Assembly (NCBI GenBank): GCA_965276005.1
Contig: OZ254962.1
Coordinates: 2,564,455-2,628,454 of the forward strand
Direction of reading: 5' to 3'
Length of the DNA: 64,000 nt
DNA from: Alphaproteobacteria bacterium
Lineage (GTDB): Bacteria > Pseudomonadota > Alphaproteobacteria > JAQWUY01
Below are positions 13,230-37,106 of the stretch, in pieces (within the stretch, counting starts at the first letter, position 1; each line of letters begins with the position of its first letter). The notes below the pieces were generated by a model. The model was given only the letters and a program-made list of their open reading frames with translations. It did no database searches and was not told the origin of the DNA. The position numbers and the translations under genes were made by a program.

Positions 13230-13645
13230 CCCGTTTTCTCGACCCCGAAAAGATTGCCAACGAACCGGATTTTTTTAATGCTAAAGCCCGTGCCGAAGGT
13301 GCCGTAACCCGTGCCGGTACCGCCCTCGACACGGATACTCAAGCGGACGCACAGCAGGTCATCGCCGCCTTGCAAACGGTGGAAGATCCGGAAATTCCTA
13401 TTAACCTGTATGATTTGGGGTTGATTTATGATATTCAATATGCTCCGTATGGGGCGGTGCATATTGTGATGACTTTGACCGCCCCCAATTGCCCAGTAGC
13501 GGGGGAGCTGCCCAAGTGGGTTGCCGATGCGGTTGTCAAAATGCCATCGGTAGGGGTGTGTTCTGTCACCTTAACTTGGACGCCGAAATGGACAAAGGAT
13601 ATGATGTCAGAAGACGCCCAGCTGGCTTTGATTGATATTTTTTAA
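13226..13645 (+). CDS. sufT: SUF-system DUF59/SufT-like Fe-S assembly protein
   Basis: 139 aa, EDPEIPINLYDLGLIYDI...LTAPNCP motif of DUF59; 4-bp overlap with sufS. Confidence 0.8.
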   Translation: MTRFLDPEKIANEPDFFNAKARAEGAVTRAGTALDTDTQADAQQVIAALQTVEDPEIPINLYDLGLIYDIQYAPYGAVHIVMTLTAPNCPVAGELPKWVADAVVKMPSVGVCSVTLTWTPKWTKDMMSEDAQLALIDIF

Positions 13646-13665
13646 TATTGTGGTATACTGTGCAT

Positions 13666-14007
13666 ATGGTGACGAAACTACAAGTTATTCAAATCAGCGA
13701 TGCGGCACAAAATCGCATCGGCGAGATTATGCACATTGCCCCCAAAGGGACAGTGGGGTTGCGGGTGTCCGTGTCGCAAGGGGGCTGTTCGGGGTATAAA
13801 TATGACATCGATTTTGCCGACAGCATTAAACCGTTGGAAGAAGTGGTCGATTGTAAACAAGGCAAGGTCATTATCGCCCCTGATGCCATGTTGTTTTTAA
13901 TCGGATCGACTATGGAATACAACGAAAGCACATTTAGCAGCGGTTTTGATTTTATCAATCCCAATGAAAAAGGTCGCTGTGGATGCGGGGAAAGCTTTTT
14001 GGTATGA
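13666..14007 (+). CDS. sufA: A-type Fe-S carrier (SufA/IscA, HesB family)
   Basis: GCSGYKY...C-terminal NPNEKGRCGCGESF Cys motif. The ATG at 13666 is preferred over the TTG at 13648. Confidence 0.85.
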   Translation: MVTKLQVIQISDAAQNRIGEIMHIAPKGTVGLRVSVSQGGCSGYKYDIDFADSIKPLEEVVDCKQGKVIIAPDAMLFLIGSTMEYNESTFSSGFDFINPNEKGRCGCGESFLV

Positions 14008-14465
14008 GTACGGAAAATCGCAATTTATGTATTGGCTTTATGGCATTGGTGCTGGTCATTGGCGGTATATTTTTTGCGGTTGCGGGGCAAAAATCAGAGG
14101 CGGCTAGGCATACATACCATGCTGTTTTTCGCACCGTCGAGGGGGTAAAAATCGGTGCTCCCGTATATGTATTTGGCATTCAAGTGGGCAAAGTATCGCA
14201 TATGCAGTTGTCCGATGGACAGGTAAAGGTTAGCGTAACCGTTGATGCTACGGTGCCAATCCCCATCGATTCCAGCCTTGAAGTACAAACCGCCGGTTTA
14301 TTTGCGGAAAAGAGTATGACTGTACTGTTGGGCTTCGAAGAAGATATATTACAGGATAAAAACGATTTTATGTATGCGGGCAATGCGGTAGATGTGATGG
14401 GGTTATTAAACCAACAACTGGACATAAATATGGAAAAAAGAAAGGCTGAAAGCAATGGGTCGTAA
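14004..14465 (+). CDS. MlaD/Mce-domain protein (outer-membrane lipid asymmetry), paralog 1
   Basis: N-terminal TM helix then Mce-domain pattern (RHTYHAVFRTVEGVKIGAPVYVFGIQVGKV...). ATGA overlap with the sufA stop. Confidence 0.65.
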   Translation: MSTENRNLCIGFMALVLVIGGIFFAVAGQKSEAARHTYHAVFRTVEGVKIGAPVYVFGIQVGKVSHMQLSDGQVKVSVTVDATVPIPIDSSLEVQTAGLFAEKSMTVLLGFEEDILQDKNDFMYAGNAVDVMGLLNQQLDINMEKRKAESNGS

Positions 14466-14901
14466 TATACTTGAAACGGTTTTGGGCATGCTGGTTGTTG
14501 TCGGTGCCATCGGTTTTGTGGTGTTTGGCATGCGTTATGTGGATGCGGATACGGGCAGCGATACATACACCGCATATGCCTATTTTAACAATGTGGGCGG
14601 ATTAAAATCTGGGGCAGGCGTGCGGGTCAGCGGCGTACTGGTCGGGCAGGTCGAGCATGTGCGGATTAACATGGACGCATTCAAGGCAGAAGTTAAAATG
14701 CAAATTTCTGATAATATTGTCTTGCCTAAGGATACTTTGGTATCGATTGCCGATTCCAGTTTGTTGGGGGGCAAGTATATTACTTTGCGTATGGGGACTT
14801 CTGCGGAATTGGTGCAGAACGGCGGGCGGCTTGACAATATCGCCGATGTGGTGTCGTTGGAACAGATGTTGGGCAAGTTAATATTCTTGGGCACACAATA
14901 A
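14455..14901 (+). CDS. MlaD/Mce-domain protein, paralog 2
   Basis: TM helix + YTAYAYFNNVGGLKSGAGVRVSGVLVGQVEHV Mce motif; 148 aa. Confidence 0.7.
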   Translation: MGRNILETVLGMLVVVGAIGFVVFGMRYVDADTGSDTYTAYAYFNNVGGLKSGAGVRVSGVLVGQVEHVRINMDAFKAEVKMQISDNIVLPKDTLVSIADSSLLGGKYITLRMGTSAELVQNGGRLDNIADVVSLEQMLGKLIFLGTQ

Positions 14902-16046: not shown

Positions 16047-17159
16047 ATGGCACGAAATCCTAAAATGCGCTTTAAACGCCCCGATGGTACTGACTATCCT
16101 GATTGGCAAGTTATGCGGTTGGGGGATATTACTTCGATAAAAACAGGTAATTCGAATAGAGAAGATTCCACAGAAACAGGACAGTACCACTTTTTCGATC
16201 GTTCTACTGATATTAGAGCAAGCTCTAAATATCTTTTTGATACACAAGCCATTATCGTAGGTGGAGAAGGTAAAGATTTTATCCCAAAATATTTTGTGGG
16301 AAAATTTGATTTACACCAAAGGGCATACGCCATCACAGACTTTAAACAAAATGATGGTAAGTTTATATATTATTACATTTATCATAACAGACGGCACTTT
16401 TTAAAAATGTCTGTGGGTAGTACAATGCCTTCTTTACGAATGAACGCATTTACAACATTTCCTATAAACCTACCCCACCCAGACGAACAAAACCGTATCG
16501 CAGAATTTTTTTCTAATCTGGACGCTGTGATAATCGCTTATACGCAAAAAGTCGAATATTTGAAAAAATACAAAAAATACTTCATGCAAAACCTTTTCCC
16601 CCAAACAAGCGAAACTACTCCAAAAATCCGCTTTAGACGCTCCGATAGTACCGATTATCCCGATTGGCAGGTTGTGCGGTTGGGGGATATTTGTTTAAAA
16701 GGCAGTTCCAATTTAACGATGAAAGATGTACATCGTGATGCCCAATATTATGTTTACGGTGCAAGTGGTATATGTGGCAAAACAAAGGACTTTATTTCCA
16801 ACGAAAAATATATTGCTATAGTCAAAGACGGGGCTGTAGGCAAATTGTATTTGTGTGAGAAAAATACGCATATTTTGGCGACTTTACAGAAAATAACACA
16901 CAAAGAAAATCATAATCTTTTATATATTTACTATGTGATGCAAACAATAAACTTTGATAAATATGTTACAGGAAGTGCAATTCCACATATTTATTATAAG
17001 GATTATAGCAAGGAAAAAATATACCTACCCCACCCTGACGAACAACAAAAGATAGTGGCGTTTTTTTCTAATCTGGACGATGTGATAACCGCCTATACAC
17101 AAAAAGTCGAATACTTGAAACAATATAAAAAATCGCTTATGCAAAATATGTTTATTTGA
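16047..17159 (+). CDS. hsdS: Type I restriction-modification specificity subunit HsdS (two TRDs), orphan in this window
   Basis: Internally duplicated: RFKRPDGTDYPDWQVMRLGDI / RFRRSDSTDYPDWQVVRLGDI TRD starts, and LPHPDEQNRIAEFFSNLDAVIIAYTQKVEYLKKYKKYFMQNLF / LPHPDEQQKIVAFFSNLDDVITAYTQKVEYLKQYKKSLMQNMF conserved regions. AT-rich relative to its neighbours. Confidence 0.8.
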   Translation: MARNPKMRFKRPDGTDYPDWQVMRLGDITSIKTGNSNREDSTETGQYHFFDRSTDIRASSKYLFDTQAIIVGGEGKDFIPKYFVGKFDLHQRAYAITDFKQNDGKFIYYYIYHNRRHFLKMSVGSTMPSLRMNAFTTFPINLPHPDEQNRIAEFFSNLDAVIIAYTQKVEYLKKYKKYFMQNLFPQTSETTPKIRFRRSDSTDYPDWQVVRLGDICLKGSSNLTMKDVHRDAQYYVYGASGICGKTKDFISNEKYIAIVKDGAVGKLYLCEKNTHILATLQKITHKENHNLLYIYYVMQTINFDKYVTGSAIPHIYYKDYSKEKIYLPHPDEQQKIVAFFSNLDDVITAYTQKVEYLKQYKKSLMQNMFI

Positions 17160-24492: not shown

Positions 24493-25416
24493 ATGATGGG
24501 TGTATCAGAGAAAAACAGTTTTGGGCTTCGTAATGGTAAAAAAATTTATCACGGGTATAATGACGAACGCAAGGTAAAAGATAGAAAAGCTAAAGAAAAA
24601 ACAAGGCTTGGATATGAGTCATACGCAAAAGATTTTGAAAGAATCACGCATACTTTACCCGATAGCTATTTGAATTCCATTGTCTGTGGGGACAGTTTAG
24701 AAGTTTTAAAAAACATGCCAAATAATTGTATCGATATTGTGATGACTTCTCCTCCATACAATTTTGGGCTAGAATATAATACCCATTCGGATACGGACAA
24801 ATGGCATGACTATTTTGATATGTTATTTGCTATATTCGACGAATGTATTCGGGTGTTAAAATATAGCGGTAGAATAATAGTCAATGTGCAACCCCTGTTT
24901 TCTGACTATATTCCCACACATCATATAGTCAGCAAGCATTTTTTGGATAAAGGCTTAATTTGGAAAGGGGAAATACTTTGGGAGAAAAACAATTATAACT
25001 GTAAGTACACAGCATGGGGCAGTTGGAAGAGCCCAGCAAGCCCATACTTAAAATATACATGGGAATTCTTAGAAGTGTTTTGTAAGGGACATTTAAAAAA
25101 GAAAGGCGATAGTGGGAATATTGATATAACGGACGAAGAATTTAAAAAATTTGTCGTCGCCAAGTGGTCGATCGCCCCAGGACGGGATATGAAAAAATAC
25201 GGGCACCCCGCTATGTTTCCCGAAAAGTTAGTAGAAAGATGCCTTAAATTATTTAGTTTTAAAGGAGATATTGTGTTAGATCCTTTTAATGGCGTGGGAA
25301 CAACGACTTATGTTGCCAAATCTTTAAAAAGAAGCTATGTCGGGATCGATGTGTCCAACGAATATTGTATTACCGCACAAAATAGAATAGACAGCATGCA
25401 GCAGGAGTTGTTTTAA
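24493..25416 (+). CDS. Beta-class amino-DNA methyltransferase (motif IV SPPY before motif I FNGVGTT), probably N4-cytosine
   Basis: IDIVMTSPPYNFG ... HPAMFPEKLVERCLKLFSFKGDIVLDPFNGVGTT. AT-rich gene, 4-bp overlap with the downstream ORF. Confidence 0.85.
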   Translation: MMGVSEKNSFGLRNGKKIYHGYNDERKVKDRKAKEKTRLGYESYAKDFERITHTLPDSYLNSIVCGDSLEVLKNMPNNCIDIVMTSPPYNFGLEYNTHSDTDKWHDYFDMLFAIFDECIRVLKYSGRIIVNVQPLFSDYIPTHHIVSKHFLDKGLIWKGEILWEKNNYNCKYTAWGSWKSPASPYLKYTWEFLEVFCKGHLKKKGDSGNIDITDEEFKKFVVAKWSIAPGRDMKKYGHPAMFPEKLVERCLKLFSFKGDIVLDPFNGVGTTTYVAKSLKRSYVGIDVSNEYCITAQNRIDSMQQELF

Positions 25417-27420: not shown

Positions 27421-29853
27421 ATGAAAAAGAGTGTTATCACATGTATTGTAGGGGTGATTCTATCTGCATGTGGCGACGGAGGAAGTACATCATTCCCTAC
27501 AGCTTTAAGCGGTGCGATCGCAGTGGGTGGTAGTGCCAGCGGTGCACAAGGGGGGCGTTTATTCCAACGCAATCAAGTTGCTAGCGGTGCTTATCAAGTA
27601 CCCTTTAGCGGTAACGGCGAACGCATCGGCATACTGGAAGGCAAAAGTGTATACAACGGCAACGCAGAATATCGCAACCGTATCGAATACGGATTAAAAG
27701 CACAAGGCGGTCGCTATACGGGGGTTATTCGCAACGATGTCCCCGCATTTCAAAGTGCCCGGGCACGACATGCGGACATGGTGACTTCTGTTGCCATTGG
27801 TAAGACTTTTGGCATTGCCCATCGGGCACGGGCGGTAGATTACAATTATGCATTTCCCATAGGCAACAGCTATTATTCGAATCACATCGAACTGGGCAGA
27901 ATATACAGCGATGCCAAATCCCGCAACTTGGTGGCTATGAATAACAGCTGGCGGACATGGTTACACGCAGAATACACCCGTGGTAGAAATGGCTATGACA
28001 GCAGTGCGGTACAAAGAGTCCAAGCAGCGGCAACCACATTGGGCGTAGACATAGACGGCAACGGTGTGAGCATGCAATACATATTTGGCAAGCGGTGTAG
28101 TAAATATAGCCGTTATTTGACTTATGCCGAAAATGGGCACCAAGTCTATACAAGCCAATACCGTGCCATATCGCAACAAGAATTACAATCGACTTATGAT
28201 TCACGGTGCAAAGGGGGATATTCCCCATATGCCAGCCGCAGTGTCTATGAAAAATATATCGGGGCGGATTTTATCCGTCAGATTGAAGCCGACAGTACCA
28301 ACGATCGTGATGCCCCTATATGGGTATGGGCGGCGGGCAATGACAACGAAGAAAACGGATCGTTATTTGCGAGCCTACCCGCACAGATTCCTAAGGCAGA
28401 AGACTATTGGCTGGCGGTGGTTGCCACCGAATATACCAGCGGGCAATATCGGCATACACGCTATTCGGCAACATGCGGACGCGCCCGGCGATATTGCTTA
28501 ACTGCTGTATCCGAAGGGGCAAGACATGTGACTTATGATGACAGGAGCTATGGCAATGGTGGCACTTCGGCGGCGGCACCGTCCGTGACGGCGGGGCTTG
28601 CGGTGGTAAAACAGGCGTTTCCCTCAAAAGATCGCCGCTGGGCAAGACGGCGGATATTGGCGACCGCATCGCACATCACCGCTGATGGCGAGCGGTTACG
28701 GGATGCAAACGGCAATATCGTCACCCCAGATGCACAAGGATATTCAAACATATTTGGCAGAGGCATTATGCGCTTGGACAAGGCGATTCAACCTATGGGC
28801 AATAGTGTCTTGTCCGTATCAGGGGCAAGTCTGGACGATGCGGAAAAATACTCCGTACAGGACAGCTTCATACACTCATCCCCAGTGTTTGGCGATGGGC
28901 TGAAACAAGGGCTGTCAAACATTGATACCAAAAAATTTGATGCTATGGGGGCGGAATTCGACTACAACATGGGCGACGGAGCATTCGTAACAGCGGCAAC
29001 AACCCCATCTAGGTTTTTAGATTTCGATGGTCAAAATGTATCTTACACCCCAACTCTTCACCATATTGGCACCAGCAATATGTCGTTTGTCGACACAGAC
29101 CCGTATCGATTTGCCAACTTTACATATACTGAGCAAAACTTGCCATTTATGCCAAAGGCGGAAAATCCTAAACGGCAACCGCTGCATATGTCCTATGCTT
29201 ACGATGCGGACAAGGCAATACAGATAAGTATCCCCAACCATGAAGATTACAGAGACATCGATTCTATGTCGTTACAATTTGTCTATGGCAAATTAACGCC
29301 AACCGTTGCGTCTGGTACCGTCCGCAGTGTCGGGCTACACACGGAACAAGGCACGGTTTTAGGCAGCAATTTTAGAGGGGCATATGGCGGCGTAGGACGG
29401 ACAAACACTGTTTATATGAACCGTACCACCCATTGGCAATGGGGCGATTGGAACTTGCGCTATAATTCTGTGTTTGGTATCAGCACCAGCAACGGTATAG
29501 GCGGTCGTAGCATACAGAATATATCCGGGCTGTTGTCCAGTAATTTCAGTGTGATTGCCCGCAAAGAATATCGTACAGGACAGCTGGGCATAGCATTTTA
29601 CCAACCGCTACGGGTGGAACGGGGCGTTATGGATGTGTCGTTTGTGTCTGATGTTCGCAACAACACAATGGTATCATACGACACCCAACAAGTAGACATC
29701 ACACCCAGTGGCAGAGAGATCGCATTCGAAGCCTATTACGATTTTGCCAACAGTCCATTTACCGTAAAAACCCACATCAGCAAGGATAAAAACCACATCA
29801 AAGGCAAGGACGACACCACCGTATTACTAAGGTATTTTAAACCGTTTAAATAA
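27421..29853 (+). CDS. Subtilisin-family (S8) serine protease lipoprotein with large beta-rich C-terminal region (SphB1/NalP-like)
   Basis: Lipobox LSAC at residues 14-17; oxyanion VWAAGNDNE; Ser motif GNGGTSAAAPSVTAGLAVV; 810 aa. The C-terminal ~300 aa have alternating hydrophobic beta-strand character. Confidence 0.75.
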   Translation: MKKSVITCIVGVILSACGDGGSTSFPTALSGAIAVGGSASGAQGGRLFQRNQVASGAYQVPFSGNGERIGILEGKSVYNGNAEYRNRIEYGLKAQGGRYTGVIRNDVPAFQSARARHADMVTSVAIGKTFGIAHRARAVDYNYAFPIGNSYYSNHIELGRIYSDAKSRNLVAMNNSWRTWLHAEYTRGRNGYDSSAVQRVQAAATTLGVDIDGNGVSMQYIFGKRCSKYSRYLTYAENGHQVYTSQYRAISQQELQSTYDSRCKGGYSPYASRSVYEKYIGADFIRQIEADSTNDRDAPIWVWAAGNDNEENGSLFASLPAQIPKAEDYWLAVVATEYTSGQYRHTRYSATCGRARRYCLTAVSEGARHVTYDDRSYGNGGTSAAAPSVTAGLAVVKQAFPSKDRRWARRRILATASHITADGERLRDANGNIVTPDAQGYSNIFGRGIMRLDKAIQPMGNSVLSVSGASLDDAEKYSVQDSFIHSSPVFGDGLKQGLSNIDTKKFDAMGAEFDYNMGDGAFVTAATTPSRFLDFDGQNVSYTPTLHHIGTSNMSFVDTDPYRFANFTYTEQNLPFMPKAENPKRQPLHMSYAYDADKAIQISIPNHEDYRDIDSMSLQFVYGKLTPTVASGTVRSVGLHTEQGTVLGSNFRGAYGGVGRTNTVYMNRTTHWQWGDWNLRYNSVFGISTSNGIGGRSIQNISGLLSSNFSVIARKEYRTGQLGIAFYQPLRVERGVMDVSFVSDVRNNTMVSYDTQQVDITPSGREIAFEAYYDFANSPFTVKTHISKDKNHIKGKDDTTVLLRYFKPFK

Positions 29854-30069
29854 TGGGTGCTTTAGGAAAAGGTAACGCCTTAGTAAAGGGGGGATAGTTG
29901 TTGTTTGTATGTGGTCGTCAATGGGGGGCATAGCCCCCCATTGACAGTATAAGCAAATATGGCAGATATGTTGTAGGTATCCAACAGGGTTTTCCAAGAA
30001 AAAAATCCCGTTGACAACACACCAACATTATGATAGTGTGTTACATTCATGGACAGTGGGGAAAAAATT

Positions 30070-30744
30070 ATGCACGCAGAAGTTATTACAGTCGATACGC
30101 TATCTATCGCCAAAAGGTTACAAGCCTCTGGTATAATCGAGGAGCATGCGAAAGCTATTGCCAATGAACAGGTAAACACGATAAATGCGAATTTGGCTAC
30201 TAAGGGTGATATTGAACAGTTTCAAGCCGAGACCAAAAAAGACATTAAATGGTTGCAATATGAGACCAAAAAAGACATTGAATTGTTGCAATCTGAGATC
30301 AAAAAAGATATTGAATTGTTGCAATCTGAGACTAAAAAGGACATTGCCAATATCTATAAAGAGATCGAGCGGTTTCAAATGGAGACCAAAAAAGATATTG
30401 CCAATATTCATAAAGAGATCGAACGGTTTCAAGCGGAAACTAAAAAAGACATTGAACGGTTTCAAGCGGAGACCAAAAAAGACATTGAACGGTTGCAAGC
30501 GGAGACCAAAAAAGATATTGCCAATATTTATAAAGAGATCGAACGGTTTCAAGCGGAGAGCAAGAAAGACATTGAACGCATGCAGGCTGAAAACAAAAAA
30601 GACATCGAACAGCACCGATTCGATACTACAAAGGATATTCGGATTGCCATGTATAAGACAGCTGGTTTTACGATTACCAGCATTGTAACCTTGTTGACCG
30701 TTATTCAAATTGTTATTGTGATATTGACACCGGTTGGGTCATAA
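30070..30744 (+). CDS. DUF1640-like coiled-coil membrane protein with tandem 11/18-aa repeats (ETKKDIE[R/L][F/L]QA...) and C-terminal TM helix
   Basis: N-terminus DTLSIAKRLQASGIIEEHAKAIANE typical of DUF1640; repeats are also tandem at the DNA level (33/54-bp units, 30229-30600); GGGGA RBS before the ATG at 30070. Confidence 0.55.
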   Translation: MHAEVITVDTLSIAKRLQASGIIEEHAKAIANEQVNTINANLATKGDIEQFQAETKKDIKWLQYETKKDIELLQSEIKKDIELLQSETKKDIANIYKEIERFQMETKKDIANIHKEIERFQAETKKDIERFQAETKKDIERLQAETKKDIANIYKEIERFQAESKKDIERMQAENKKDIEQHRFDTTKDIRIAMYKTAGFTITSIVTLLTVIQIVIVILTPVGS

Positions 30745-30878
30745 AAAACGAAAGGTGCCTTGCGGCAGGGGCTTCGTATTATCGTCCAAACTCGCACCCA
30801 AGCGGCGTTCGATGTAACAAAAAGTCGAATATATTTTCCTTTAAAAACAATGATATAGAATATCATATAGAAGAGAAG

Positions 30879-30893
30879 TTTTTTTTTTTTTTT
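30879..30893 (+). repeat. Homopolymeric T15 tract immediately upstream of the putative promoter of the TPS-domain giant gene
   Basis: gaagagaag-T15-aaatttt; 21 bp upstream of TTGACA at 30914. Confidence 0.9.
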
Positions 30894-30913
30894 AAATTTT
30901 AATAAAATTTTGC

Positions 30914-30943
30914 TTGACATTCCCAATTTGGATATGGTACACT
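30914..30943 (+). promoter_or_regulatory. Candidate promoter TTGACA-18-TACACT (alternative -10 TATAAA at 30945) for the 31082 gene
   Basis: Consensus -35 hexamer; about 140 bp upstream of the start codon. Confidence 0.35.
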
Positions 30944-31081
30944 GTATAAATGCGTAAGTATGTATACGGTGTTATTTGCGTATGTTAGATTAAATTTTTG
31001 TTTTATGGTTACTTGGTGATCACATACAAGATGCGGAGAGGGCGTTTTGTGTGGAGATGTGCCGGATTTAGGAGATATGTG

Positions 31082-34000
31082 ATGAGATGTGATAAAAAAG
31101 TGTTTATGGTGGCGTCATCGTTGTATGCTGCTGGTATGTTGTCTGGTGGTTTTGCCTATGCGGGCGGGCTTCCCAGTGGGGGGCAGGTCGTTGATGGCAG
31201 TGCCAGTATTTCCCAACAGGGCGACACCCTGAATATAAATCAGCAATCGGATAAAGCGATTATCAGCTGGAAAGATTTTTCTGTAGGCAAGGGCAATACG
31301 GTAAATTTCAATCAGCCGGCTAGTGATTCGGCAACTTTAAATCGGGTTACGGGGGATTTTACTTCTGAGATTGCCGGACAGATTAACGCTAATGGTAGCG
31401 TATTCTTAATAAACCCCAATGGGATACTGATTACTGCGGATGGTGTTATCGACACGGGCGGTTTTGTCGCCTCGACTCTCGACATCGACACCAACGATTT
31501 TTTGAATGGCGATTATACATTTACAAAAAGCGGTAGCAATGGCGTTGTTTCGAATCGGGGTCATATTTCGGTCGATGATGGCGGTTTTGTTGCCCTACTA
31601 GGCGGGGCGGTGAAAAACAGCGGCGTTGTCCGTGCCCATGTGGGTAAAGTAGGCTTTGGTGGCGGTGAAAAAATTGTAATGTCATTCGGCAACAACGATT
31701 TTTTACGGGTCGAAGTACCAACGGATAAATGGGACAAGCTGACCGATTCGCAAGGCAATAAAGTGCTTGCGACTGTTGACTTGGGCGGCACTGTCGACTC
31801 TCGGGGCGGCTTTATCGACATAGCCGTTGCCGATGCGGCGGATATTTTACGGCAGTCGATTTCCATAACCGGGGTGGTATCTGCAAACACTGTGTCCTCC
31901 ACAGACGGGGTTATATCGATTAGTGGCGGTTCGTTGGGGGTTATCGGTAACGGGCGAATCACCGCTGATGCGGATTATGGCAATGCGGGTAGCATAAATG
32001 TCGCCGTAGATTCCATCGATGGCAACGGTCGATTTTCTGCGGCATCACAAAATGGCACTGGAGGAAAAATTAAAATATCGTTACAACACGGGGCGGATTT
32101 AACCGTTGGTGCAAGTTTTGATGTGTCTGGTCGCACCGCTGGGGGGAGTCTGTCGTTTATTGGTGGACTATCCGGCAAAGGTGAGTCGAAAATATTAGGG
32201 TCGATAGATTTTAAAGCCGACAGTACAGACGGTAAAGGCGGATATATCGACATTGGCAACAAGGGCGGCTTAGTCGGTCTGTTCTCTGGTACCTTATCGG
32301 CAACCGGTAAGGTGCAAGGCGGGCGAATCCGTGTGGGCGGGGCGTTTCAAGGCGGCGGCTATGACCCAAAAACCAGCCAACTCGACACCAAGACCCAAGA
32401 TTTATTTGCAACCCGTTGGGCGGATAACAGCTCCCTTGTTAGTGCCAGCAAAACTTCGCTGGGCACGGGCGTAAATGTCGTCGTATCGTCTGCATCCGGC
32501 ACAGGCGGCACGGCTATTTTATGGGCGGATCATACCACCAATAACTATGCGGCTATCGATGCCACTGGTGCCACTGGTGGCGGTGCGGTGGAAATATCTG
32601 GTAAGAAACAGGTCAAAAGTTTTGGCTTAGCCCGGGTAAAAGCCGGCAATGGGGTTATTTTACTCGATCCGAAAAATATACGCATTACCGCAGAATGGGG
32701 CAGTGCAGCAAGCCAAGTACAACAGATTGCATCTGCATGGGATCATTGGCGAAATGGTAAGTTTGGTGCCAGTGTAGCGTTAAGCCGTGACGGCAATACG
32801 ATGGCCGTAGGGGCTCCCGGCGTTGATCTTAATAAAGGTGCGGTATATATTTACGATGTTGCCGGTGGCAAATGGGGGGCGACAGCAACACATAGCCGTA
32901 CCATTAAACATGACACTCGTATTTATGTGGAATCGACGGGTCGCATGGGTAGCGTGCATTTAGAGGATAATGGTAAAAAACATTACTTTGGTAGTAGTGT
33001 AGCACTGAATGACGATGGAAAGTACCTAGCTGTCGGTGCTCCCTCCGGTGGTGGTGCTAGTAAAGGTGAGGTGAGTCTGTTTCATCTTGGTAGCATAGCC
33101 TATTATTCTACACCTGGTAAGGGGAGTACACTTGTGAGAAAGAGACGGATTCAATATGGTGGTTCACATAATGGCGATCGCATTACAGTGTCTGGTGGTG
33201 CAAGTGACCCTCAGTTTGGTTCTGCTGTAGCCATCAGTGATGATGGAAAGAGAATGGCTGTTGGGGCATCTAATGAACTTCACAGTGGGTGTGCTGGTCA
33301 TTCACATTGCAGAGGGGCAGTATATGTAATCACGACAGATTCATGGAACTCGAACAGGTGGGGCAATTCAAAGTATTTGAAGATTGATAACAAACAGTCA
33401 GCAATGACATGGGTAACCTCTAGTGCTCACGGTAGCTCGTCCCAAAATCGTTTGTATGATAATCACCGCTTCGGTTTTAGTTTGGCTATGAGTAGCGATG
33501 GAACGAAGCTAGCTGTTGGGGATCCTGCCCATCGGCGTTTTGATACTAATTATTCGTATGGGCACGAAAAGGGAGGGAAACAAATAGGGGCGGTACACCT
33601 ACTCGGAATTATTTATAAAGAGGATGATGACGGTAGTGTTACCGATATCAAACCGTATTATGCACGGTTGGTTACACATAGTAGCTCAGCAGCGGATGAT
33701 GAGTTTGGCAGCAGTGTTGCGTTGAGTGGTGATGGCTTCAAATTGGCTGTCGGGGCACCGAATCACGATAGCGGTGTCTCCGGTGATAACAAGTATGGGG
33801 CGGTGTATCTGTACCGCATTCCAGCTAATGGGTGGGCTGTGAGTATAAGTAGGATTGAAGGAAATAATAACCATCCAATCTTTGAGAGAAAGATCGATGT
33901 CGAATATGATAGTTTTGGACTTTTTGGAATGAGTAGTTCTAATAAATTGGACAAGGATCATTTGTTCGGTTCATCTGTGGCACTCAATGGGACAGGCGAT

Positions 34001-36322
34001 AGGTTGGTTGTCGGGTCACCCGGTGTGAAGAATAACTCAGGACATGTGCGATTGATAAATGTTTCCAGTATGAAAGCGATTGTAGAAGGAAAATTAAATG
34101 ATGGTACAAATCTCACCTATTATGCCAGTAACAATATCACCATAGATGCGGATATAACAGCCAGCAGTGGTAAACTTAACTTAATCGCCGGCAAATCGAT
34201 CGAAATTAACAATGATATAAAAGTCAATGGCGGGCTTGTACTAAAAGCCAATGACGCCAGCGATAGTGATTTTATTTTAAGCGAACGGGACACAGGCAAA
34301 GCGGAAATCACCGTTGCAGCAGGCAAAAAGCTAGAGACCAATGGCGATTTGATTATCAAAATGCTAACGGGTGCAAGCGGTGCCGCTAATAACAAAAAAC
34401 AAACCGGCAAAATCACTGTCGACAAAGTAAAAGGCGAACGGGTTAGCATTGCGTATGCAGGTGCAACCAATGCAGACAGCGATTCAGAAATTGTTATCCG
34501 CAACGGTGGGCAAGTCGAGGCGACTAAATCTCCATCATCCGCAGAGGTTGTCTTGGAACTCAAAGCAGACAAATTTACCAACCTATCAAATAGTAATGCT
34601 TTAAAAACAGCATCAAAGGGTCTGTACTTGGTGTGGGCAAAAACCCCTGCAACTAACACTATGAATGGCATAGCCAACTATGGTTTTGTGCAATTTAACA
34701 AGCCATACAGTGGTAGTGGTTGGAACAACACTGGGCTTGCTGAGAGAGATAAAAGTGCCTTTATATACAGTGCTAATCCATCCTTAGCTATGTCATTTAC
34801 AGGCGAAAAAACCAAGGTGTATGATGGCACTTCTGCACCAGCAGGCAACACCTTTGCGTTCAAAAACAACGGGGTTTATAATGGATTGAAGTTTAAAATC
34901 GGTGGGTATGTGGACACTTCGTCCAATAAGCACTTTAATTTCAAAGGCACCTTTACCACCAATGCCAGCGGTAAGTTTTACAACACAGCCGGCACTGCGG
35001 AACAAAAAGATGCGGGAAGCAACTTAACCTTGAAATTTACAGGACATGCCATGTCGTATGTGGATGGCAACAATGTAACCGCATACGGCTTGGTGTCCGT
35101 GCCCACCATAGACGATGTAACCGGTGCATCAATTACTCGAAAAACCTTGAAAGTTAGTGCAACTTACAGCAACCGTGAGTATGACGGCACAACAAATGTG
35201 ACAATAGATCCAGCGACTGTAACCATCGACGGTTGGGTCGCTGGCGAAGGCAACAGCAATGTTAATAATGTGTTTAACGGTTCGTTGACGGCAACAGCTG
35301 CTGAGAAAGATGTGGGTACTCATATCGTAACATTAGGCGGATCTAATGGTTTAAAAGCACCATATGCAACGAACTATAAGCCTGAATATGACAACAGCAA
35401 GTCTATTACTATCAATCCAAAATCCTTACAACTAAAAATGAGCGACTTGTTTGTAAAAGACCGAAACTATGCATCAGGAGTATTACATGCCCCCGTGTCT
35501 ATCAAAGACGGTGAAAAGGGGTTTGATAGCGGCGATTTGGTGAATGGTGATAGCGGCGTAACATTAACAATAGCTAACGGGGCGTTTGTATATAAAGATG
35601 ATAATATCGGAAGTAACAAAGAAGTATTCATCGGTGATAAAGACAAGTTTACACTAAATTCCCAAAACTATGAATTGCAATACAGATTTAGGAGTCTTGA
35701 TTCTGCTAAAGGTGCACTCACCACACTGAGAGGGAATATTAAAGCCACAGACTCTGACGACAGTGATGGTGATGGTAAAAAAGACTTAGCCACCCCCGGT
35801 GGCAGTGGCGGCGGTAGCGGTGGCGGTGGCGGCGGCGGTGATTCGGGTGCTGGCGTTGTTCTGTTAGGTGCCGGTGCTGTCGTGGCGACGCAAACCGGTG
35901 TGTTAGCCAAAGTTACAGCAGCTGCAACAGCGGCAGCCGGAGCGGCAGGAGCCGCAAGTGGTGCCGGTGCCGCAGGGGCAGGGGCAGCAGGTGCCGGCGG
36001 TGCAGGTGGTGCAAGTGGCACATTAGGTGCCCCACTTGGCAGCATCGACACCATATTCAACAGCGGTGTATACGCCCACCTGAGCGGTATCGATATGCAG
36101 GCACTATATCAACCACAAACCCCCATACCATCCATATTTAACACCCCACAAAAGGTAACATACAAAGCCAAATACACCACCACATACGATATGACAATTC
36201 TTGCCAATAACATCAAGGCACAAAAGGTAGTACCTCTGTACGAACTGGACGAAAAAATGTACGAAACCTTGAAACGCATATTTGTACATAGCGGCGAAAC
36301 AGACGACACCCCCCATAGTTAA
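31082..36322 (+). CDS. Giant TpsA-type exoprotein: N-terminal TPS/haemagglutination-activity domain fused to FG-GAP repeats, an MBG-like (…REYDGTTNVTID…) region, a beta-helix-like block, a Gly/Ala-rich linker and a C-terminal domain shared with gene 1
   Basis: TPS hallmarks LNINQQSDKAIISWKDFSVGKGNTVNFNQP ... ANGSVFLINPNGILI (NPNGI). FG-GAP units (FGASVALSRDGNTMAVGAP...GAVYIYDV etc.). LNLIAGKSIEINNDIKVNGGLVLKANDAS...GKAEITVAAGK is ~70% identical to gene 1. C-terminal GVYAHLSGIDMQALYQP...KYTTTYDMTILANNIKAQKVVPLYELDEKMYETLKRIFV. The start at 31082 is chosen to give a signal-peptide-like N-terminus (the ORF track begins at 30998). Confidence 0.85.
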   Translation: MRCDKKVFMVASSLYAAGMLSGGFAYAGGLPSGGQVVDGSASISQQGDTLNINQQSDKAIISWKDFSVGKGNTVNFNQPASDSATLNRVTGDFTSEIAGQINANGSVFLINPNGILITADGVIDTGGFVASTLDIDTNDFLNGDYTFTKSGSNGVVSNRGHISVDDGGFVALLGGAVKNSGVVRAHVGKVGFGGGEKIVMSFGNNDFLRVEVPTDKWDKLTDSQGNKVLATVDLGGTVDSRGGFIDIAVADAADILRQSISITGVVSANTVSSTDGVISISGGSLGVIGNGRITADADYGNAGSINVAVDSIDGNGRFSAASQNGTGGKIKISLQHGADLTVGASFDVSGRTAGGSLSFIGGLSGKGESKILGSIDFKADSTDGKGGYIDIGNKGGLVGLFSGTLSATGKVQGGRIRVGGAFQGGGYDPKTSQLDTKTQDLFATRWADNSSLVSASKTSLGTGVNVVVSSASGTGGTAILWADHTTNNYAAIDATGATGGGAVEISGKKQVKSFGLARVKAGNGVILLDPKNIRITAEWGSAASQVQQIASAWDHWRNGKFGASVALSRDGNTMAVGAPGVDLNKGAVYIYDVAGGKWGATATHSRTIKHDTRIYVESTGRMGSVHLEDNGKKHYFGSSVALNDDGKYLAVGAPSGGGASKGEVSLFHLGSIAYYSTPGKGSTLVRKRRIQYGGSHNGDRITVSGGASDPQFGSAVAISDDGKRMAVGASNELHSGCAGHSHCRGAVYVITTDSWNSNRWGNSKYLKIDNKQSAMTWVTSSAHGSSSQNRLYDNHRFGFSLAMSSDGTKLAVGDPAHRRFDTNYSYGHEKGGKQIGAVHLLGIIYKEDDDGSVTDIKPYYARLVTHSSSAADDEFGSSVALSGDGFKLAVGAPNHDSGVSGDNKYGAVYLYRIPANGWAVSISRIEGNNNHPIFERKIDVEYDSFGLFGMSSSNKLDKDHLFGSSVALNGTGDRLVVGSPGVKNNSGHVRLINVSSMKAIVEGKLNDGTNLTYYASNNITIDADITASSGKLNLIAGKSIEINNDIKVNGGLVLKANDASDSDFILSERDTGKAEITVAAGKKLETNGDLIIKMLTGASGAANNKKQTGKITVDKVKGERVSIAYAGATNADSDSEIVIRNGGQVEATKSPSSAEVVLELKADKFTNLSNSNALKTASKGLYLVWAKTPATNTMNGIANYGFVQFNKPYSGSGWNNTGLAERDKSAFIYSANPSLAMSFTGEKTKVYDGTSAPAGNTFAFKNNGVYNGLKFKIGGYVDTSSNKHFNFKGTFTTNASGKFYNTAGTAEQKDAGSNLTLKFTGHAMSYVDGNNVTAYGLVSVPTIDDVTGASITRKTLKVSATYSNREYDGTTNVTIDPATVTIDGWVAGEGNSNVNNVFNGSLTATAAEKDVGTHIVTLGGSNGLKAPYATNYKPEYDNSKSITINPKSLQLKMSDLFVKDRNYASGVLHAPVSIKDGEKGFDSGDLVNGDSGVTLTIANGAFVYKDDNIGSNKEVFIGDKDKFTLNSQNYELQYRFRSLDSAKGALTTLRGNIKATDSDDSDGDGKKDLATPGGSGGGSGGGGGGGDSGAGVVLLGAGAVVATQTGVLAKVTAAATAAAGAAGAASGAGAAGAGAAGAGGAGGASGTLGAPLGSIDTIFNSGVYAHLSGIDMQALYQPQTPIPSIFNTPQKVTYKAKYTTTYDMTILANNIKAQKVVPLYELDEKMYETLKRIFVHSGETDDTPHS

Positions 36323-36422: not shown

Positions 36423-36680
36423 ATGGTTACTGTTAGGCAAGTTTATTGGACAAAGGATGCTCAGAAATTTATGGACAGCTTGCCTGCCGATGTGTCCGAA
36501 CGGATATATAAAGCGGTGCGTAAAGTTGCAGATGGCAACAATGCCAATGTGGTAAAACTTGTTGGGTCGCCATATTATCGCTTGCGTGTCGGTAAGTGGC
36601 GGGTGATTTTTAATGACGATGGGGTCATTGTCGAGATTATTGAAATAGGTTCCCGTGGTTCCATTTATAAGCGTAGATAG
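36423..36680 (+). CDS. RelE/ParE-family (HigB/Gp49-like) toxin
   Basis: 85 aa, ...YRLRVGKWRVIFNDDGVIVEIIEIGSRG pattern; followed by an XRE-HTH partner. Confidence 0.7.
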   Translation: MVTVRQVYWTKDAQKFMDSLPADVSERIYKAVRKVADGNNANVVKLVGSPYYRLRVGKWRVIFNDDGVIVEIIEIGSRGSIYKRR

Positions 36681-36692
36681 GAAAAAAATAGT

Positions 36693-37106
36693 ATGAATGT
36701 ACAATATATTACAGATAGCACAGGAGCAAAGATGGCTGTATTGCCCGCATCAGAGTTCGATAAATTGCAACGCATTAAGGCGATGTCCGATAACAATATG
36801 CAAGATAAATTGGATATTATGAGAGCAGACGAAATTATGCACCGTGTGCGTCAACATAACGAAGAACTTATACCAGACGAAGTGATGCGGAAAATTTATC
36901 AACAACGGCAAAATCGTATTCGTGTGTATCGTCAATGGCGTGGGTATCAAATTAATGAACTTGCCAATGTGATTGATATTACCCCGGGGTATTTGTCGAA
37001 CATAGAACGAGGGGTACGGGAAGGCACAATAACCGTGTACCAAAAACTCGCCAAAGCGTTACAAACAGATATTGAAAGCTTGTTGCCCCGTACGGAAATG
37101 TTATAA
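36693..37106 (+). CDS. HigA-like antitoxin / XRE-family HTH protein
   Basis: C-terminal HTH QINELANVIDITPGYLSNIERGVREGTITVYQKLAKAL; 13 bp after the toxin gene. Confidence 0.65.
   Translation: MNVQYITDSTGAKMAVLPASEFDKLQRIKAMSDNNMQDKLDIMRADEIMHRVRQHNEELIPDEVMRKIYQQRQNRIRVYRQWRGYQINELANVIDITPGYLSNIERGVREGTITVYQKLAKALQTDIESLLPRTEML

Follow-up and report, generated by a model that had tools for sequence, protein, structure and literature searches.

Can the pathway of two-partner secretion (TPS), whose TpsA passengers have been described as beta-helical fibres and whose export is thought to be helped along by their stepwise folding outside the cell, also display a globular propeller? The question is raised by a long gene, here called tpsA, near the middle of a 64,000-nt stretch of the genome of an Alphaproteobacteria bacterium (assembly GCA_965276005.1, contig OZ254962.1, positions 2,564,455 to 2,628,454; the whole stretch is hereafter the window). 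We read its product, with a probability of about 70%, as a TpsA-type (type Vb) exoprotein whose stalk carries both a six-bladed FG-GAP propeller and immunoglobulin (Ig)-like domains that vary, and which belongs to an expanded family. An earlier note on this DNA had proposed a TpsA exoprotein with an integrin-like FG-GAP passenger; what it observed is confirmed, far beyond chance, and its interpretation is partly supported.

The N-terminus combines an export signal, a TPS domain and a beta-helical shaft

The plus strand from 30998 to 36322 is one open reading frame (ORF) without interruption, as the earlier note had it, although the TTG at 30998 is merely the earliest in-frame start option. On sequence evidence, the ATG at 31082 is the likely start of the coding sequence (CDS), because AGGAG lies 7 nt upstream, the translation from this Met is identical to the database protein P0001 (1746 aa), and the N-termini of the paralogs begin at the equivalent position in an alignment; residues are numbered from this Met throughout. 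The motifs quoted in the earlier note (NINQQSDKAIISWKDFSVG, NPNGILI, FGSSVALSGDGFKLAVGA...GAVYLY and two copies of YDGT) are all found in the translation.

The protein opens with a putative Sec-type signal peptide, MRCDKKVFMVASSLYAAGMLSGGFAYA, which is followed by GG, reaches its hydropathy peak over aa 7–25 (1.46 on the Kyte-Doolittle scale) and has an N-terminus that is conserved in the paralogs. In an AlphaFold2 (AF2) model of aa 1–1200, built on 34 homologs (mean predicted local distance difference test score, pLDDT, 78.8; predicted template modelling score, pTM, 0.63), the signal peptide is disordered, with pLDDT <50 over aa 1–27. Directly behind it, Pfam TPS (PF05860) matches aa 29–294 with E=1.1e-33 and 117.7 bits against a cutoff of 33.5, and NCBIfam TIGR01901 (adhes_NPXG) exceeds its cutoff with E=3.5e-21, bearing out the N-terminal TPS domain proposed earlier. 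In an alignment of 34 sequences, the residues N111-P-N-G114 and those flanking them are invariant or nearly so, and the predicted fold is a right-handed beta-helix like those of FHA30, HMW1-PP and HxuA.

PDB sequence searches with the TPS and shaft region returned EtpA (1e-45), HMW1 (1e-28) and HxuA (1e-21), and the TPS domain therefore runs on into a beta-helical shaft of about 250 aa. This shaft is beta-helical in the AF2 model, where the match is to a helix of the EtpA type. No Fil_haemagg or Fil_haemagg_2 (FHA-1, FHA-2) repeat was matched by Pfam at E<=1 over the whole protein. The claim of a passenger that is not beta-helical thus survives for the FHA repeats and fails for the shaft. The mature protein contains two Cys only; few Cys are usual in passengers crossing the outer membrane in an unfolded state.

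Six FG-GAP units are predicted to form one six-bladed propeller

Beyond the shaft, Pfam FG-GAP_2 (PF14312) matches in 5 stretches (E=4.1e-30), and a custom repeat hidden Markov model resolves six units, beginning at aa 558, 635, 711, 796, 872 and 962; with the missing Fil_haemagg matches, this agrees with the earlier assignment of the repeats to FG-GAP rather than to FHA. DSSP assigns about six groups of four strands to this part of the AF2 model. A fold search with the propeller part found six-bladed propellers as its closest structural neighbours; integrin alpha propellers were also matched and had the highest sequence identity, at 17–20% (Foldseek E about 1e-9).

Blade counts across the family point the same way. 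The number of FG-GAP units is 6, 12, 18, 24, 30 or 36 in 65 of 76 relatives, within and beyond the lineage, where chance would give roughly one in six. The 11 proteins that break the rule have too few units for a multiple of six (most lack a single unit), show a gap of double length or resemble fragments. Multi-unit proteins show a uniform spacing of ~66 aa, which leaves no space for a hidden seventh blade. Lag analysis of blade identity gave no clear peak at 6, 12 or 18, and in the DNA arrays, whose period is 204–213 bp, it is single blades that are amplified; the six-fold rule is therefore a constraint on the count and not the product of simply duplicating six-blade blocks. It looks like the reflection of selection for complete rings, and its strictness makes it a clean, testable structural rule. 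By sequence family the propeller is FG-GAP and by modelled geometry it is six-fold, that is, six-bladed, and the fold matches together with the six-fold counts suggest that the six blades close into a ring.

The comparison with integrins accordingly holds in part. The blades belong to the same family (FG-GAP_2) as those of the integrin alpha head, which has seven blades and Ca2+-binding loops of the motif DxDxDGxxD, whereas the protein described here has six blades without such loops: the only match to this pattern lies at aa 1560, outside the propeller, and the blade consensus reads (L/M/I)(S/N)x(D/T)Gxx(L/M)(A/V)VG. An RGD motif is absent from the mature protein.

A replaceable Ig-like cassette and a lineage-restricted C-terminal module follow the propeller

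From aa 1010 to 1200 the AF2 model shows short regular strands at pLDDT 80–94, marking a second beta-helix-like block that has no Pfam family match and is 62–68% identical across the paralogs, the window's other copy included. It leads into about three YDG/MBG-type domains (Pfam YDG, PF18657, in 2 stretches at E 3.5e-7 to 1.2e-6, one of them aa 1352–1433), an order of domains that the earlier note had already recognised.

This part of the protein differs between strains. In a close strain (L005), in which the tpsA locus is syntenic, the allele P0002 is 98–100% identical to P0001 over aa 1–1150 and aa 1584–1746 and only 30–70% identical between them, and the two alleles differ by ~95 aa in length within this interval. 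At the DNA level, positions 34707–35142 (436 bp) cannot be aligned with their 748-bp counterpart in L005, while the flanks of the cassette, ribonucleotide reductase included, are 97–100% identical between the two strains. Judged from these alignments, the strains differ by the replacement of a cassette within the YDG/MBG region. We looked for a donor among the listed paralogs; the best match was only 50–60% identical, so no recent intragenomic donor was identified.

The C-terminal module consists of a poly-Gly linker, a hydrophobic segment (aa 1589–1612), an Ala/Gly-rich tract and a domain of 96 aa. The hydrophobic segment is the most hydrophobic stretch of the protein (Kyte-Doolittle 19-residue mean 1.74, compared with 1.46 for the signal peptide) and is kept in all lineage paralogs. 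It could serve as a membrane anchor, although AF2 renders it as coil at a pLDDT of about 40 and a helix is unsupported. The C-terminal domain (...KYTTTYDM..LANNIKAQK.VPLYELDE.LYETLKRIFV...) is present in all paralogs. Its profile matches only 19 of 1.84 billion representative proteins, always at the C-terminus, and the carriers scanned are TPS+FG-GAP_2+YDG proteins or their fragments. The whole module is found in every lineage paralog and is absent from the TPS-FG-GAP proteins of other taxa that we compared; profile searches of Pfam, NCBIfam and PDB returned no relative of it, save Gly-linker artefacts (single-chain variable fragment, scFv, chains). Its position and conservation suggest that it probably keeps the protein on the envelope or controls its release, for which the C-terminal region of FhaB offers a loose analogy.

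The protein belongs to a family of at least 26 paralogs

The source contig is complete (2,965,790 bp). It encodes 25 proteins of the family, 24 of which have a TPS match; their summed length of 51,082 aa corresponds to 153 kb and so to about 5% of the genome. Counting the copy truncated where the window begins, the genome has at least 26 paralogs. That copy matches FG-GAP_2 with E=7.5e-202 in 28 stretches, carries the same post-propeller block and C-terminal module, and contains a tandem DNA array (3022–5204) with a blade-length period of 204–213 bp and about 11 copies.

Conservation is uneven along the protein. Paralogs are 80–88% identical in the TPS domain, 73–85% in the shaft, 33–40% in the propeller, 62–68% in the post-propeller block, 35–60% in the Ig-like region and 60–80% in the C-terminal domain. 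Conserved ends around diversified propeller and Ig-like parts fit a variable adhesin or surface-recognition family. That the family takes up about 5% of a 3-Mb genome, exchanges cassettes at strain level and has a private C-terminal module points to a major system of surface variation in this uncultured lineage. Three family members elsewhere in the genome, P0024, P0028 and P0040, begin without a signal peptide, P0040 starting past the TPS domain; their starts may be miscalled, or the genes may be frameshifted or serve as silent cassettes.

TPS–FG-GAP proteins are widespread in databases

The earlier note had called the architecture unusual and had not recognised it as a described family. As to description, this still holds: full-text searches of the literature within reach found no account of a TPS–FG-GAP protein, and the reviews of type V secretion systems (T5SS) and of TPS that we checked do not mention FG-GAP. 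Rarity, however, does not hold, since at least 25 proteins of other Proteobacteria carry PF05860 with PF14312, usually together with YDG/MBG, in taxa that include cultured Duganella, Massilia, Sphingobium, Sphingomonas, Blastomonas, Emcibacter and Sphingosinicella. Their NCBI names are generic (filamentous hemagglutinin N-terminal domain-containing protein or "YDG domain-containing protein"). The design is thus uncharacterised in the literature and already visible in databases.

Five uncharacterised examples with TPS, FG-GAP_2 and YDG/MBG (P0077 of Duganella sp. CY15W, P0111 of Massilia atriviolacea, P0113 of Sphingobium sp. B1D7B, P0047 of Sphingomonas sp. NCPPB 2930 and P0049 of Emcibacter nanhaiensis) have the same domain order, 28–34% identity over 54–88% of the query, and 6, 12 or 18 FG-GAP units. 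Relatives in other taxa differ from the lineage in being without its C-terminal module, an ESPR extended signal peptide and MBG_2 domains occur in some of them, and none of the genomes seen has an expansion comparable to about 26 copies. In Duganella sp. CY15W, the TPS+FG-GAP gene lies directly upstream of a TpsB gene of the POTRA_2+ShlB type, which is the best available evidence that the TPS–FG-GAP class is a true TPS substrate.

Known systems share parts of this design. EtpA of enterotoxigenic E. coli and HMW1 of Haemophilus influenzae continue as beta-helix or repeats without a propeller and are encoded in operons with TpsB, joined by a glycosyltransferase for HMW1 (PMC5422565), whereas here we find an FG-GAP propeller, Ig-like YDG domains, the lineage C-terminal module and no partner gene nearby. 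FhaB/FHA of Bordetella pertussis has Fil_haemagg repeats, of which there are none here, and no similarity to the FhaB prodomain was detected. TcB of the Tc toxins and the SpvB-linked propellers are likewise bacterial secreted proteins with a six-bladed propeller (six blades in TcB, PMC6868009; SpvB-linked propellers described as integrin-like, PMC3482391). In those proteins the propeller comes after an SpvB domain and serves as the gate of an RHS/YD cocoon; the protein described here has neither SpvB nor RHS nor a toxin domain. Zhang et al. 2012 linked integrin-like propellers to the SpvB/TcdB route and listed only filamentous-haemagglutinin repeats for T5SS (PMC3482391). A widespread, uncharacterised class in which closed six-bladed propellers are predicted to sit on a TPS stalk would indicate that the pathway handles globular rings, up to six of them serially, and the class offers a defined substrate for testing how ring folds pass and fold beyond the TpsB channel.

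The proposed export route and its alternatives

In the reading that we prefer, the protein would be exported by Sec through its N-terminal signal peptide, an Omp85-type TpsB whose gene lies in another part of the genome would recognise its TPS domain, and the chain would be threaded across the outer membrane to fold outside the cell. A stalk made up of the TPS domain with about 250 aa of beta-helix would carry one closed six-bladed propeller, in this reading the likely ligand-binding head, followed by the second short beta-helix and the recombining YDG/MBG Ig-like cassette, while the C-terminal module of the lineage would probably hold the protein on the envelope or control its release.

Several observations weigh against this reading. 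The earlier note had proposed to search the flanking genome for a TpsB/FhaC gene, and none of the genes in the 64-kb window is of the POTRA/ShlB type. A TpsB from a sister genome, used as query against a set of 5.8 billion proteins, returned three proteins, all from the sister lineage and none from this genome, in a search that reaches only relatives sharing exact 5-residue words and with a query that is itself divergent (ShlB E=4e-14), so that a distant TpsB would be missed. Since both the window scan and this search gave none, a TpsB partner is not demonstrated in this genome. In addition, the propeller part of the AF2 model is patchy (pLDDT 40–90), and the C-terminal module is without a homolog of known function (AF2 pLDDT 46 over aa 1562–1746).

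The genes for TPS partners mostly, but not always, lie in one operon, and some TpsBs secrete several TpsAs (PMC5422565). Two sister genomes likewise have their FG-GAP tpsA genes as orphans, and one of the two has at least three tpsB genes, each beside a TPS+YDG protein without FG-GAP. In this sister genome, of 2.58 Mb, a 7390-aa TPS-family protein with many YDG domains is encoded directly 5' of a tpsB gene at locus L011 (positions 1–9943), and a second tpsA-tpsB pair lies 1 kb beyond this one.

A more far-reaching version of the preferred reading, which we think rather unlikely as a whole, is that the TPS pathway has come to serve, in this lineage, a large and recombining repertoire of surface proteins from at least 26 genes, with a common stalk, 1–6 tandem propellers, swappable Ig-like cassettes and a private C-terminal tether to the envelope, possibly an inner-membrane anchor by which they would span the envelope. 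Export may then rely on a highly divergent or non-canonical transporter, because our search brought up no close TpsB from this genome.

The tether can be given a more specific form, in a refinement of the preferred reading that we consider unlikely: aa 1589–1612 would act as a stop-transfer segment in the inner membrane, leaving the C-terminal domain in the cytoplasm while the N-terminal part goes out via TpsB, and proteolysis, perhaps by the S8 lipoprotein encoded nearby, would release or remodel the protein. The segment, by its 19-residue mean the most hydrophobic of the protein, is conserved in every paralog between flexible Gly and Ala/Gly tracts, and the domain behind it is the most conserved part of the family outside the secretion part. 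The S8 lipoprotein gene lies 1.2 kb 5' of tpsA in both strains, and FHA is matured by a subtilisin, SphB1 (PMC5422565). Against these stand the Gly-rich composition of the segment and its low-confidence coil in AF2, a net acidic downstream domain (by our own count), contrary to the positive-inside rule, and an S8 gene that does not adjoin the paralogs examined in sister genomes. Nor is any TpsA known to have an inner-membrane anchor.

Quite improbable is a reading in which two-partner secretion makes no use of the TPS-like domain here, the protein being periplasmic or leaving by another route in a genome without a matching TpsB. The window without a TpsB gene and a sister-TpsB search that brought nothing from the 2.97-Mb or the 2.63-Mb genome would suit such a view, but the 5-residue-word search with its divergent query would overlook a distant TpsB, the homologous architecture in Duganella adjoins one, and conservation across the 25 paralogs is highest in the TPS domain, which argues for a retained function.

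That the propeller acts as a sialidase-, lactonase-, phytase- or PAL-like secreted enzyme, and not as a binding module, is very unlikely. Six-bladed enzymes of these kinds appear among the structural matches at 7–12% identity, a resemblance of fold only, for which we rejected the idea; the blades fall in the FG-GAP_2 family, which is non-catalytic in integrins, and up to six tandem propellers with so low an identity between paralogs suit binding modules better than active sites. Contact-dependent inhibition of the CdiA type, or another polymorphic toxin carried by the C-terminal domain, is scarcely credible and was rejected, since in spite of a large TpsA-type protein, a multi-copy family and recombining cassettes the C-terminus is conserved and the Ig-like region is the variable part, there is no VENN, ELYN, LYVN or PAAR motif and no Pfam FHA-repeat or toxin match, and the genes downstream are a ParE/HTH toxin-antitoxin pair and not a small immunity gene for a variable tip.

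Organisation of the locus and neighbouring genes

Table 1. Features of the tpsA gene and its surroundings, in window coordinates
Feature	Position	Strand	Residues or size	Basis or remark
T16 homopolymer tract, just 5' of the promoter-like site	about 30878-30894			
Promoter-like site (TTGACA, 18 nt, TACACT with TG extension)	30914..30943	+		Consensus scan, match only
TpsA-like exoprotein CDS (likely start)	31082..36322	+	1746 aa + stop	ORF; identity to P0001
Sec-type signal peptide, putative (MRCDKKVFMVASSLYAAGMLSGGFAYA)	31082..31162	+	aa 1-27	Sequence inspection
TPS secretion domain, NPNG at aa 111-114	31166..31963	+	aa 29-294	
Beta-helical shaft extending the TPS domain	31964..32716	+	aa 295-545, ~250 aa	
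Six FG-GAP_2 units, predicted single six-bladed beta-propeller	32753..34096	+	aa 558-1005	
Second beta-helix-like block	34109..34861	+	aa about 1010-1260	AF2 to aa 1200; end inferred
Variable cassette	34532..35833	+	aa about 1150-1584	P0001 vs P0002 (close-strain L005 allele, 13450-14900)
YDG/MBG-type Ig-like region, about three domains	34949..35776	+	aa about 1290-1565	Pfam and YDGT motifs
Poly-Gly linker, hydrophobic segment, Ala/Gly-rich tract	35777..36031	+	Hydrophobic aa 1589-1612; Ala/Gly-rich aa 1613-1650	
Lineage-restricted C-terminal domain	36032..36319	+	aa 1651-1746, 96 aa	
Further family member, truncated at the left border of the window	2..7717	+	At least 2571 aa	32 FG-GAP units visible
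S8 subtilase lipoprotein, lipobox LSAC	27421-29853	+	810 aa	S8 E=2e-12
Tail-anchored coiled-coil protein, 11-residue repeats (KKDIERFQAET...)	30049-30744	+	231 aa	DNA period 33 bp
ParE-family toxin and HTH_3 protein, directly 3' of tpsA	36423-37106	+	85 aa; 137 aa	Also in L005

The promoter-like site lies ~140 nt 5' of the start codon, in a region that is 97% identical to the close strain L005. We considered phase variation at the T16 tract and rejected it: L005 has T15 followed by C, and because this difference is a substitution and not a change in length, there is no evidence for slipped-strand phase variation at this tract.

Among the neighbours of tpsA in the window are ribonucleotide reductase genes, a DNA methylase, the S8 lipoprotein, the coiled-coil protein, the ParE/HTH pair and fatty-acid modification genes. 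The window is chromosomal, and the best named relative of its ribonucleotide reductase, a protein of an Alphaproteobacteria metagenome-assembled genome, is 73% identical. A type I restriction-modification S subunit gene (16047–17159, plus strand) and a separate N6/N4 DNA methylase gene (24493–25416, plus strand) have no obvious partner among the ORFs scanned. The ParE and HTH_3 proteins are probably a toxin-antitoxin pair unrelated to the exoprotein.

The S8 lipoprotein recalls the lipidated subtilisin autotransporters SphB1 and NalP. Its best NCBIfam match is the autotransporter peptidase EprS, over the S8 core only and far below the cutoff, and its C-terminal third is beta-rich without a family match; with no beta-domain match at E<=5 and no PDB match, the reading of this neighbour as an SphB1-like autotransporter is not supported. 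The coiled-coil protein ends in a hydrophobic tail, and its homolog in L005 has 268 aa, so that the number of its repeats varies by strain.

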